Origin: an uncultured delta proteobacterium
GTDB lineage: Bacteria > Myxococcota_A > Polyangia > Polyangiales > Polyangiaceae
Length of the DNA stretch: 64,000 bases
Direction of reading: 5' to 3'
Assembly (NCBI GenBank): GCA_963716725.1
Contig: CAVQUB010000032.1
Coordinates: 128,001-192,000, forward strand
Shown here: positions 41,656 to 47,370 of the stretch, in pieces
How the letters are laid out: each line of letters starts with the position of its first letter
Numbering within the stretch: position 1 is the stretch's first letter
Notes under the pieces: generated by a model
What the model saw: only the letters and a program-made list of their open reading frames with translations
Database searches by the model: none
Told to the model about the DNA's origin: nothing
Translations under genes and position numbers: made by a program

Positions 41656-42324
41656 ATGGCGAAAGCGATCACGCTCCTGGACACGACGATCGGTAAGAAG
41701 GTCGTCATGGCGGTGACGGGTCTCGTCCTGTACGGGTTCGTCGTCGCGCACATGCTGGGCAACCTTCAGGTCTTCATGGGCCCGGAGCAGCTCAACGGGT
41801 ATGCGAAGAAGTTGCACGACCTCGGGCCCCTGCTCTGGGCCGCCCGGGCAGTGCTCGTGGTTGCGGTGGTGCTGCACGTGCTGATGGCGGTGCAGCTGGT
41901 CTCACGCAGCGCAGCCGCGCGACCCATCGGCTACCGTCAGAAGAAGAACCCGACCACGACCTACGCCGCGCTCACCATGAAATTTGGCGGGCTCGCGCTG
42001 ATGCTCTTCATCCTGTACCACCTGGCGCACTTCACCTTTCCTGGGGTGTCGATGGCCGCCGGCTACAAACACAGCCCGACGGACGTCTACGCAAACGTGA
42101 TCGCGGGCTTCAGGGTGCCTTGGGTCAGCGCGATCTACGTGGTGGCGCAGATCTTCCTTGGCATGCACCTCTACCACGGTGCGTTCAGCCTGTTTCAGAC
42201 GCTGGGGCTCAGCCACCCGCGCTACATCGACAAAGCCAGGTTCGTCGCGCAGACCCTCGGGATCGCGGTGGCCGCAGCCAACGTCGCCATGCCCGTCGCG
42301 GTCGTGGCGGGCGTCGTGAAGTGA
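41656..42324 (+). CDS. sdhC: Succinate dehydrogenase cytochrome b subunit
   Basis: [27 protein letters not shown]; five TM segments. Confidence 0.92.
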
Positions 42325-42335
42325 GGGAGAGAGCC

Positions 42336-44270
<1,935 letters not shown>

Positions 44271-44289
44271 GGAAGGCGAAGAAGCTCAC

Positions 44290-45078
<789 letters not shown>

Positions 45079-45085
45079 GGCCCGT

Positions 45086-45812
45086 TCAGAACGCCAAGGC
45101 GCCGCTCCAGGTGAAGGAGCGCTCGCCCAAGAGCGACGTTTCAAAGCGGAGGTCCAGGCCCCCGGTGGCGTCTGCGCCGACCCCGAAGCCCACCGCGTAG
45201 TGGTGCTGGTCGCTGCCGATACGCGTTCTCGCCGTCGCGCTCGAACTGAACGGGACCGCCGAAGGCGCGGGCGAGGGCGAAGGGACGGAGTCGCTCGAAG
45301 AGCGTGACGCCGACCTCGGCGCCGAGCCGAAGATCGGATGCCGAGAGCGTCGACTCATCGCCGGTAGCGGTCGCTTCGATGCGCGCTCGCGAAAAACCCA
45401 TCGAGAGCGTGGTGACGGCGAAGAGCTGCCCGTCCGCGCCGCCGAGCATGCGGTAGGCCCCGGTCACGCTTGCGAGCCAGCCCGCGCCCACCGAATAGCT
45501 CCGACCCTCTCCCTCGAGCTCACCGCCCGCGAGCAGGCCGCCGGACACCACGACGGCGGTGCGTTCGCCGAGGCGCCGCCCAAAGCTCAGCACGTACGAA
45601 CTCTGGCGCAGCGTGTAGTCGGCGTCTTCGACGCGCAGCTCGGAGCTGAAGGTCGCAGCCCCAACCGCCGCGAGCCAAAGGCGTTCGTCGGCGCTCGCAC
45701 TCGCCGCGCACCCCGTCGGACCGACGGGCGCCGCGAGCCCTCAAGCCCGCGCGGGACGCGAAACGCCCAGTCCGCCCATCACGACGGCGGTCAGGAGCAG
45801 ATGTGAACGCAT
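45086..45812 (-). CDS. Candidate selenoprotein: exported beta-barrel-like protein with in-frame TGA at codon 24 (one 1-nt frameshift near 45227)
   Basis: MRSHLLLTAVVMGGLGVSRPARA-TGA-GLAAPVGPTGC continues in frame into the 45141-45593 ORF; SECIS-like hairpin; C-terminal Phe. Confidence 0.65.
45700..45743 (-). promoter_or_regulatory. Putative bacterial SECIS element
   Basis: UGAGGGCUCGCGGCGCCCGUC-GGUCC-GACGGG; stem C16-C21/G27-G32, loop G22-G23-U24-C25. Confidence 0.6.
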
Positions 45813-45944
45813 GGCTGCCTAGAGTGGTGGTGGCCAACGGCAGCGTCAATCTTCGAGCGCACCTCCTGGTCGAGCCTCGGGCGAAGCCGGTAAGTGCATC
45901 GCGCGGCGGCTTGAAGCCGGGTTCCCGCCGTGTTTTCTCAGCCC

Positions 45945-47024
45945 ATGCCCAAGCCCCCGCCCGCCAAAGTCGTGCAGATCGCCGAGAAGGCCCGGAACGG
46001 TCTGCGTTCCCTGGAGCGGAAGCTGGCGCCTCCGGAGATCGGACTGCTCGGCTTCGTCAGCGACCTCTGGGGATTTCAAATCGTGTACACCTTGGCCGAG
46101 CTGCGGGTCGTCGACGCCCTCAAGGGCGGGCCGAGGCGAGCCGAGGCCGTCGCCACGGAGATCGGCGTGGACTCCGATCACCTGTACCGATTGCTGCGCG
46201 CCGCTACCCACTTCGACATCGTTCGCGAAGAACCCGATCGCAGATTCTCGCTCTTGCCGATGGGGGTCGCGCTCTGCGACGTGGAGAACGAGAGCTTTCG
46301 GGACTTCCTGATCCTGGAGGGCCGCGTGGGCTGGAGATTCTGGGGGCGCTTGAAGGACTCCGTGCGCCAGGGCAAGACCGCCATCGAGATCGAGACGGGC
46401 AAGAAGTCCTTCGAGTACTTCGTAGGCGACGAGAACGCACGGCACGTCTTCAACCGCGCGATGACCGCCATCAGCGCGGTCTCCGCCGAGGCGTTCGTGG
46501 CTGCCTACGATCTCTCCGGATTCAAGCACATCGTCGACGTCGGCGGCGGGCTCGGTCGGCTGCTCTCGGCCGTGCTGGTGCAAGCTCCGCTTGCCAAGGG
46601 CGTCTTGTTCGACCTTCCCGAGGTCGTGGCTGACGCGCCGCCGGTGCTCGAGGCGCTCGGCGTGAGGTCGAGGGTCGAGATCGTCGGTGGCAGCTTCTTC
46701 GAGTCGGTACCGGCGGGCGGGGAGCTCTACGTGATGAAGTCGATCATCCACGATTGGGCCGACGACGAAGCGCTGAAGATCCTGGAAAATGTCCGGCGCG
46801 CCGCGACTCCGACCTCGAAGCTCGTGCTCTACGAGACGGTGGTGACGCCGCCGAACGTGAAGCACTTCGCCAAGCTGCTCGACATCGAGATGATGGTGCA
46901 CGCGGGGGGGCGCGAGCGGACTCGTGATGAATACGCGGCGCTCTTCGGCAAGGCGGGGTTCCGCCTGTCGCGGCTGATCCCATCGGCGGGCCCGGCCAGC
47001 GTGATCGAAGCGGTCCCAGGTTGA
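45945..47024 (+). CDS. SAM-dependent O-methyltransferase with dimerisation domain
   Basis: VDVGGGLG, FDLPEV, GSFFESVP, KSIIHDW, GGRERT. Confidence 0.9.
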   Translation: MPKPPPAKVVQIAEKARNGLRSLERKLAPPEIGLLGFVSDLWGFQIVYTLAELRVVDALKGGPRRAEAVATEIGVDSDHLYRLLRAATHFDIVREEPDRRFSLLPMGVALCDVENESFRDFLILEGRVGWRFWGRLKDSVRQGKTAIEIETGKKSFEYFVGDENARHVFNRAMTAISAVSAEAFVAAYDLSGFKHIVDVGGGLGRLLSAVLVQAPLAKGVLFDLPEVVADAPPVLEALGVRSRVEIVGGSFFESVPAGGELYVMKSIIHDWADDEALKILENVRRAATPTSKLVLYETVVTPPNVKHFAKLLDIEMMVHAGGRERTRDEYAALFGKAGFRLSRLIPSAGPASVIEAVPG

Positions 47025-47034
47025 TGCCGACGCC

Positions 47035-47370
47035 TCAGCGCACCTTGCCGCCAGCCCGGATGGCCGCGACCGGGTAGGTGCCCACGACGTTCCTGAGCTG
47101 CTGCAGCTGGGTGGCCGGGATTTCTCCGCGCACCACCACCAGCCGAGCGCGTCGGTCTTCCACCACCACTTTGAAGCGTGCGGCCGGCAGGCGTGGCCGG
47201 CGCACGACGTCGCCCAGGTCGTCGAGCAGGCGCTGGGGCATACGCCCACGAACCGCCCGCGGCACACCGTCGACCACGTCGATCACGAACAGCTCGTTCG
47301 ACCGAGCGATCGCGATGATCAGCGGTGTCGCCAGCAAGGCTAAGATCACGAGGCCGAGCCAGGCGGTCAC
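47035..47370 (-). CDS. DUF3634-like small membrane protein
   Basis: TM, then RSNELFVIDVVDG...QQLRNVVG. Confidence 0.65.
   Translation of the reverse strand: MTAWLGLVILALLATPLIIAIARSNELFVIDVVDGVPRAVRGRMPQRLLDDLGDVVRRPRLPAARFKVVVEDRRARLVVVRGEIPATQLQQLRNVVGTYPVAAIRAGGKVR

Follow-up and report, generated by a model that had tools for sequence, protein, structure and literature searches.

A candidate selenoprotein family of Myxococcota with selenocysteine at the predicted mature N-terminus of an outer-membrane β-barrel

Does an in-frame UGA directly after a signal peptide end translation, or does it encode selenocysteine (Sec)? The question is raised by a gene at 45086..45812, minus strand, of a 64,000-nucleotide stretch of contig CAVQUB010000032.1 (assembly GCA_963716725.1; this whole stretch is the window, G000:C32:128001-192000 in our numbering). 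A first-pass annotation had proposed that the UGA encodes Sec in a new, exported selenoprotein, and this proposal gains support from a conserved TGA, from exchange between Sec and Cys, from covariation in a selenocysteine insertion sequence (SECIS) hairpin and from a link to the Sec machinery. We regard it as highly probable that UGA codon 24 is read as Sec and that the gene is a real, Sec-decoded one. Very probably the gene is functional, belongs to a Polyangiaceae-type myxobacterium and codes for a selenoprotein, an exported outer-membrane barrel with a Sec/Cys arm.

The gene and its in-frame UGA

On the minus strand, the ATG at 45812 is the first start past a TAG stop at 45821-45819. The gene that it opens has the following parts.

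45086..45812, minus strand: whole gene, with a precursor of about 241 codons once a one-base assembly insertion is discounted (from the sequence and intact orthologues)
45744..45812, minus strand: predicted signal peptide, codons 1-23, MRSHLLLTAVVMGGLGVSRPARA, ending in A-R-A; of signal peptidase I type by the -3/-1 rule, with a putative cleavage site
45741..45743, minus strand: UGA codon 24, probably read as Sec and predicted to be residue 1 of the mature protein (conserved column)
45711..45729, minus strand: putative SECIS hairpin, nucleotides 15-33 (U of UGA = 1), stem CCCGUC/GACGGG (cross-genome pairing)
45722-45718, minus strand: loop G22 G23 U24 C25 C26 within this hairpin
45708..45710, minus strand: Cys35 codon TGC, the conserved partner Cys (second Cys in relatives)
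45089..45740, minus strand: mature protein, predicted as a flexible arm of about 20 residues, a β-barrel of about 10 strands and a C-terminal Phe (orthologue model)
45226..45227, minus strand: AA dinucleotide with one A too many, giving an apparent frameshift (contig comparison, relatives)
45086..45088, minus strand: the gene's own TGA stop; the convergent sdhB gene ends 7 nt away

Beyond the UGA the frame continues as GLAAPVGPTGC... into a Gly/Ala/Ser-rich, strand-like body, with 10 residues between U24 and C35. It is broken near 45226, where the -1 frame takes over and ends in ...WSGALAF before the TGA stop at 45088-45086. The first-pass annotation had described a signal peptide from ATG 45812 to A-R-A with TGA as codon 24, and an open frame that closes on Phe when one A near 45227 is removed; the sequence bears out both. 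Intact orthologues in 19 relatives are 229-269 aa long. The earlier remark that callers of open reading frames (ORFs) miss the N-terminus was likewise correct: the ORF list has pieces only, one of 150 aa from GTG 45593, which is also the called protein of the window, and one of 90 aa from ATG 45358.

We ran the read-through query against 40 relatives, 20 of which matched. Fourteen of these have exactly one TGA inside the match, five have none and one, a weak match, has a TAG. Among the close relatives the TGA always lies in the same place, right after a signal peptide ending in A-x-A, and the five stop-free relatives carry Cys at this position. A profile search of 401 genomes of the order matched 114, and alignment of the matches to the profile gave 120 non-redundant loci; the stop-free rows G229, G174:C120, G380 and G371 and the partial rows of G085, G099, G407 and G088:C192 were left out. 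In these 120 loci the Sec column holds TGA in 67, Cys (TGC or TGT) in 52 and Ser in one. It is preceded by Ala and followed by Gly in every locus, and position -3 is Ala in 108, with Gly, Ser or Val in the remaining 12.

The same column is found outside the order. A phylum sample of 401 genomes gave 37 matching genomes, 22 of them from outside the order, and 20 of these 22 have one TGA. All 18 TGA loci of other classes that were fetched (G686 and G453 not included) have the TGA at the same column. The two stop-free members outside the order have Phe (L163, genome G723) and Gly (L164, genome G596) there, and both are without the partner Cys. The first-pass annotation had looked to homologues with Cys or a conserved TGA as support for Sec, and 67 TGA and 52 Cys loci out of 120 provide it; Trp, which it had held against Sec, occurs at the column in none of the aligned homologues, and Phe and Gly only in the two distant members. 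A contig pattern search for ACGL[AS]APVG with Cys codons in place of U yielded 61 stretches, none of which was confirmed.

Both a TGA copy and a stop-free copy occur in genomes G054, G065, G073, G081, G174 and G387. In the last of these, two diverged paralogues were found, L053 (G387:C434) with TGA and L098 (G387:C422) with TCA, a Ser codon. The hairpin of L098 has one C-C mismatch, and this copy looks like a conversion from Sec to Ser with a decaying SECIS. In a tree of 100 of the 117 mature sequences (FastTree, arm columns removed), the Cys forms fall into three clusters of 39, 7 and 1 rows that are nested among diverse Sec lineages, which corresponds to a minimum of three switches between Sec and Cys with the root not fixed and no direction given.

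If the UGA were a stop, the product would be a shorter protein from a downstream start and the upstream frame a separate short leader. This is how gene callers treat the family: in the best 150 representatives, 93 called proteins start downstream of the column, while Cys stands there in 51 and Ser in 2, and the other 4 have a gap or a misalignment; the window's called protein, from GTG 45593, is a case in point. Such a short product would have neither the signal peptide nor the arm nor the first strand, although a barrel needs export. Moreover, the loci share no start codon past the UGA (many have CTC or CTG directly after U-G), the Cys forms run continuously from signal peptide to barrel, and the signal peptide is kept in frame in all 67 TGA loci. 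We consider termination at the UGA to be extremely improbable.

The in-frame TGA and the one-base frameshift, taken together, could also mark the window copy as a dead gene or an assembly artefact. Twenty public runs contain this stretch, none of them listed as an RNA run, and we compared the Logan contigs of four: X1, which may be the source sample itself; X2, from the same study but a different sample; X5, a strain from another study; and X10, whose contigs do not cover the gene with its frameshift site. In the contigs of X1, X2 and X5, which are all three of the runs covering the site, the AA at 45227-45226 is a single A, the letter at 45226 being absent. Those of X1 and X2 differ from the window in no other letter and keep the TGA. 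Since three short-read contig sets do without the extra A, this letter is probably an assembly error and the gene intact; all relatives are in frame at this site. The A that the first-pass annotation had marked as superfluous near 45227 is thus found as an assembly difference.

Strain X5 differs from the window at 53 positions over 1101 nt, making it about 95% identical. In the 40 of its 52 differences that were listed, the TGA is unchanged and is flanked on both sides by synonymous changes (GGG>GGA, CGG>CGA), which indicate that selection acts across the TGA. The earlier annotation had named TGC or TGG in reads as an outcome that would speak against Sec; the independent contigs keep TGA. With the TGA as the conserved state of the family, the frameshift absent from three of three covering contig sets and the changes beside the TGA synonymous in X5, a dead gene or an artefact is hardly credible. 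Two other loci, L096 (G369:C68) and L137 (G363:C4), were also matched by the profile in two frames and have either assembly indels or real frameshifts.

The hairpin and the selenocysteine machinery

The mRNA at nucleotides 15-33 reads GCCCGUC-GGUCC-GACGGGG, a hairpin separated from the UGA by 11 nt. Its stem CCCGUC/GACGGG and its loop G22-G23-U24-C25-C26 are located exactly where the first-pass annotation had put them. Folded on its own, the 19-nt hairpin has an energy of -12.0 kcal/mol (z -2.24), a value that 3 of 200 shuffled sequences reach; for a 45-nt stretch, z is -1.93 and 10 of 200 shuffled sequences do equally well. In G+C-rich DNA such a single-sequence fold is only mildly better than chance and no more than suggestive. 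That the hairpin is more than a chance structure follows from the comparison across genomes and not from the single sequence.

Every one of the 60 distinct TGA loci has the five inner pairs (17-31 to 21-27) intact; among the 53 Cys/Ser loci not a single one has. Aligned without gaps, 61 distinct 39-mers show pairing in 93.0% of cells, versus 18-47% when the partners are slid by 1-3 columns. At five of the seven pairs both partners vary (16 cells); in 500 shuffles none of the five measures was ever reached. Four of the pairs have compensatory changes, and the pair types are CG/GC/UA/UG at 18-30, GC/AU/GU at 19-29, UA/CG/GC/UG at 20-28 and CG/UA at 21-27. At synonymous third positions, for instance, CCC..GGG is exchanged for CCG..CGG, and there are paired amino-acid changes from Val/Thr to Ala/Ala, Gly/Pro or Ile/Met. 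In the loop, G22 and G23 are invariant and U24 is present in 58 of 60 TGA sequences. The 18 loci of other classes keep all five inner pairs in 17 cases and four of five in one, and show further variants. The codons for P-V-G-P-T-G encode the hairpin, and this peptide is strongly conserved in Sec forms, whereas Cys forms retain a loose P-x-G; its conservation in Sec forms is thus largely a constraint on the RNA.

A published model of bacterial SECIS elements, as set out in the accessible part of a 2026 catalogue, places G at the first loop positions, 16-37 nt between UGA and loop, and a minimum free energy (MFE) of at most -7.5 kcal/mol (PMC13188914). With its 5-nt GGUCC loop, its 6-7 bp stem, 18 nt from UGA to loop and an MFE of -12 kcal/mol, the hairpin agrees with all four constraints checked. 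In Rfam, 45600-45850 matched no family at E ≤ 10.

The first-pass annotation had called the element fdhF-like, and this comparison holds in part. By the description in one section of a review, the upper stem-loop of the Escherichia coli fdhF SECIS comprises nucleotides 15-31, starts 11 nt after the UGA and has G23 and U24 in its loop (PMC8659212). The element described here shares the 11-nt spacing, the upper stem-loop from nucleotide 15 and the apical G23/U24. It differs at position 17: whereas fdhF has a bulged U17 on the 5' side of its stem, a SelB contact according to that description, C17 is paired with G31 in 61 of 61 sequences here, within a stem of 6-7 continuous G+C-rich pairs. We would describe the element as SECIS-like in its working and not of fdhF type at position 17.

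All four genes of the Sec machinery, for which the first-pass annotation had advised a search, score over their cut-offs in the window's genome, and its alternative of a genome without machinery falls away. The window's contig carries selA (467 bits; cut-off 268), selB (281 bits; cut-off 242) and tRNA-Sec (70 bits; cut-off 47) within 12 kb at G000:C32:262008-273859, about 70-80 kb past the end of the window. Since both are on one contig, the machinery certainly belongs to the same organism as the gene. The selD gene, on another contig (L010, G000:C6:227368-228291), contains a single in-frame TGA, which follows ...VQGGG. Past this codon its mRNA can fold into a stem that closes on an identical GGUCC loop, placed at nucleotides 29-33 after the UGA and thus 7 nt further downstream than in the barrel gene. 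These features indicate that the genome's selD is itself a selenoprotein gene.

Across the order, selA was found in 107 of 401 genomes. It is present in 59 of the 64 genomes with a TGA copy (6 of which also carry a stop-free copy) versus none of the 47 genomes with only stop-free copies; these classes were sorted by hand, and no statistic is attached because kin are not independent. Among the five TGA genomes without selA, four have tRNA-Sec and three have selB over the cut-off. We also considered an alternative genetic code, which was ruled out: TGA ends many of these genes, and the TGA form tracks selA.

The barrel and its N-terminal arm

We modelled the orthologue L016 with AlphaFold2, as the first of 100 mature sequences. 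The mean predicted local distance difference test score (pLDDT) is 92.7 and the predicted template modelling score is 0.86; apart from a short helix at residues 16-20, the model is all β. All 58 Foldseek matches listed at E ≤ 0.001 are outer-membrane or membrane barrels. The top VIA-align match is the designed 10-strand barrel TMB10_163 (Z 17.1; root-mean-square deviation 2.4 over 136 of 142 residues), followed by OpcA and pOmpT (Z 14.5), Pla (13.6) and 12-strand autotransporter domains (12.7-13.8). Of 117 members, 83 end in Phe and 5 in Tyr, and a signal peptide is present in all members inspected. One Cys form has a sub-threshold match to OMP_b-brl (18.7 bits; cut-off 28.7). On this model, the protein is a small barrel of the outer membrane, in which short loops join about 10 strands and a flexible arm forms the N-terminus.

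The first-pass annotation knew of no such selenoprotein family, and neither did the resources that we searched. For the 14 members scanned, Pfam and NCBIfam (including its selenoprotein models) gave no family over cut-off, and NCBIfam at E ≤ 1 gave a single chance-level match to an unrelated family. A profile search of 1.84 billion representatives returned 525 clusters at E ≤ 0.001, 317 of them at E ≤ 1e-30. In a second database, the related proteins are all named "hypothetical protein", have no Pfam domain and are assigned by their sources to a Polyangiaceae, Polyangiales or Myxococcales bacterium; one cluster there, P0253, is labelled Candidatus Marinimicrobia by its source, unlike the others, which may be due to a binning error or to transfer. 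Atlas clusters of the family are mostly from Myxococcota. Our literature searches found no report on the family, and two selenoproteome reviews that were searched contain no mention of Myxococcota; of four papers that name both selenoproteins and Myxococcota, none concerns selenoproteomes. A preprint by Haft (10.1101/2022.07.06.499078) reportedly deals with the SAO system of anaerobes, which is unrelated to this family.

We propose the following sequence of events. The ribosome would read UGA codon 24 as Sec, with the hairpin 11 nt past the UGA and its G-G-U loop recruiting SelB with Sec-tRNA(Sec). The precursor would be exported, and signal peptidase I would probably cut after A-R-A and leave Sec as residue 1. 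The remainder, whose last residue is Phe, would fold in the outer membrane as a barrel of about 10 strands. The first ~20 residues would form an arm with Sec1 and the partner Cys, able to cycle between selenol/thiol and an intramolecular selenylsulfide, and the barrel would have this arm anchored at its mouth as a redox-active element.

An invariant Cys or Sec after a signal peptide, with a small residue at -1, might instead suggest a lipoprotein. Cys at +1 is the hallmark of bacterial lipoproteins, and the Sec/Cys would then be the lipid-modified lipobox residue of a lipid-anchored barrel, with a seleno-ether in the Sec forms. The lipobox, however, follows [LVI][ASTVI][GAS]C, and A-x-A patterns fit signal peptidase I rather than a lipobox. 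The residues before the Sec/Cys column mostly depart from the lipobox across the 120 loci. Position -3 is Ala, not Leu, in the 108 loci mentioned above, and position -2 is mostly charged or aromatic (ARA 38, AEA 13, AHA 11, AFA 8, AYA 6). A barrel with a C-terminal Phe is moreover inserted by the BAM machinery and does not need a lipid anchor. A lipoprotein is therefore a very improbable explanation.

The earlier annotation had proposed a U-x10-C pair. The pair itself is conserved, with a second Cys at +10 to +15 in 119 of the 120 loci of the order and at +4 in the other; the fixed spacing is not, since x10 to x14 occur in the order and the second Cys is at +2 (U-G-C) in 14 of 18 loci of other classes. 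Where the U/C is lost to Phe (L163), Gly (L164) or Ser (P0050), the partner Cys is lost too. Because members that lose U/C are also without the partner Cys, L098 being the exception, the two residues appear to behave as a unit with free spacing. Evidently, to judge from L163 and L164, the barrel can persist without the chalcogen pair. The U/C always follows A-x-A and precedes Gly, which suggests that a free amine beside the selenol may matter.

What the pair might do can be approached from its surroundings. One possibility, which we think rather unlikely yet take seriously, is that the arm is a metal or metalloid hook, in which the amine and selenolate of Sec1, the partner Cys and acidic or His residues chelate a soft metal. 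Cu, Ni, Hg, Cd or As would be candidates, and the barrel would serve uptake, efflux or sensing. Such a hook would fit the position of U/C right after the predicted cleavage site (invariant Ala at -1 and Gly at +2 in 120 of 120 loci) and the acidic residues after the partner Cys (CEG, CSED, CDG), to which Cys forms often add C-S-L-x-E-H-E-E. The arm would also resemble the N-terminal Ni-hook of the nickel superoxide dismutase NiSOD. Several selenoproteins listed in Table 1 of the 2026 catalogue also handle metals (PMC13188914). On the other side, the loci have no conserved metal-resistance or transport neighbours, the sole hint being a ModA-like protein beside the Cys form L025, and in a chelate of fixed geometry one would not usually see the chalcogen spacing vary between 1 and 14 residues. 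The free spacing fits a selenylsulfide redox pair somewhat better than a fixed chelate, with metal binding a serious rival. A redox pair is our preferred prediction for the arm, albeit a tentative one held at less than even confidence. A role other than redox chemistry or metal or metalloid chelation we consider unlikely.

Several observations weigh against our interpretation of a working, redox-active selenoprotein. The bulged U17 that E. coli SelB needs, in the accessible description of fdhF, is absent. In genome G004 (84% complete), which has a TGA copy, selA, selB and tRNA-Sec were not found over the cut-offs. The window assembly is itself frameshifted, and the frameshift was called an error from contigs alone, one set of which, X1, may come from the same sample. 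Sec is most likely the first residue of the mature protein, a placement that has the A-x-A rule as its sole basis, and residues 1-20 of the model have a pLDDT of 51-65, so that the placement of the arm in it is unreliable. A Sec/Cys pair in the periplasm would be expected to stay oxidised unless a reductant reaches it. The L098 paralogue, with Ser at the column and the partner Cys kept, indicates that the pair is not indispensable for keeping the barrel. Finally, clustering of flanking ORFs at 40 loci (1.5-kb flanks) found partners conserved only within a genus and no operon partner.

Neighbourhood, meaning and relation to known systems

The gene stands alone. Upstream, an O-methyltransferase gene at 45930-47024, plus strand, diverges from it (Methyltransf_2, E 8e-51), and the region 45930-47370 holds this gene together with one for a DUF3634 protein. 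Downstream, sdhB converges on it with 7 nt between the stops; sdhA and sdhB, judged from their sequences to encode the flavoprotein and iron-sulfur subunits, occupy 42120-45078, plus strand. Pfam assigned unrelated families to 65 flanking ORFs of the loci: O-methyltransferase, DUF3634, peptidase M16, epimerases, SDR, type II secretion system ATPase, thioredoxin-like, trypsin, kinase, aldehyde dehydrogenase, radical SAM/SPASM, ModA-like and PHO4. A radical SAM/SPASM gene lies upstream on the opposite strand at L044, L059 and L060, all of one genus, and was not seen in other genera. At the Cys form L025 (G016), the ModA-like solute-binding gene (SBP_bac_11, E 8e-58) is downstream on the same strand.

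According to the accessible part of the 2026 catalogue, 119 prokaryotic selenoprotein families and subfamilies are known, and certain anaerobes are richest in selenoprotein genes (PMC13188914). To these 119 the present family would add a well-supported one from Myxococcota rather than from selenoprotein-rich anaerobes. In the accessible part of the catalogue no entry is described like this family; its "Hypothetical protein DF, DG, DW" are set apart from it only through the absence of NCBIfam matches. The family also exposes a systematic annotation error: most called proteins are cut at the UGA, and several hundred clusters are therefore without the signal peptide and the active arm. A Sec predicted as residue 1 of an exported barrel raises testable questions about selenium chemistry outside the cytoplasm. 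With Sec forms only where there is Sec machinery, Cys forms elsewhere and at least three switches, the family is, furthermore, a natural experiment on why cells pay for Sec. What is new here is the protein family, its cellular place and the Sec at the predicted mature N-terminus; the recoding is the ordinary bacterial mechanism.

Among known selenoproteins, the commonest pattern in the catalogued families, as the accessible text describes them, is a Sec with a nearby resolving Cys (PMC13188914). The U-G-C of the members from other classes (14 of 18 loci) is shared with the UGC-containing TlpA family and DUF1573 (UxC/UxxC). Those proteins have thioredoxin-like or soluble folds, whereas here the motif is at the free N-terminus of a membrane barrel; in contrast to UGC/UxxC selenoproteins, the partner Cys of the present order is 10-14 residues away.

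OpcA, OmpT/Pla and TMB10_163 resemble the family in fold over model residues ~20 to 219, at an identity of 8-10%. They are without the N-terminal Sec/Cys arm, and the shared fold is silent on function; the family barrel, unlike theirs, has very short loops on both faces. The β-domains of the autotransporters EspP, Hbp and NalP (Z 12.7-13.8) align from model residue 1, so that in the model the arm would match the linker in their pore. They have 12 strands and a large passenger domain, unlike the family described here. It is conceivable, if quite unlikely, that the arm threads the barrel like an autotransporter linker and displays a free 1,2-amino-selenol at the surface, where it could capture metals or react covalently with electrophiles, thioesters or oxidants outside the cell. 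On this reading, the free amino-selenol is the working group and the reason why the family needs Sec at its extreme N-terminus. If true, this would be the first selenoprotein with a reactive group made by signal-peptide cleavage and the first surface-displayed bacterial selenol.

The closest counterparts in cellular place are two barrel selenoproteins of the catalogue, GSU2204/MtrB-PioB (NF041027) and an FCYXU-type TonB-dependent receptor (NF049945), which its accessible part describes, as we do this family, as predicted outer-membrane β-barrel selenoproteins (PMC13188914). The present family differs from both in being small (about 220 mature residues), in having about 10 strands and in carrying Sec as its predicted residue 1.

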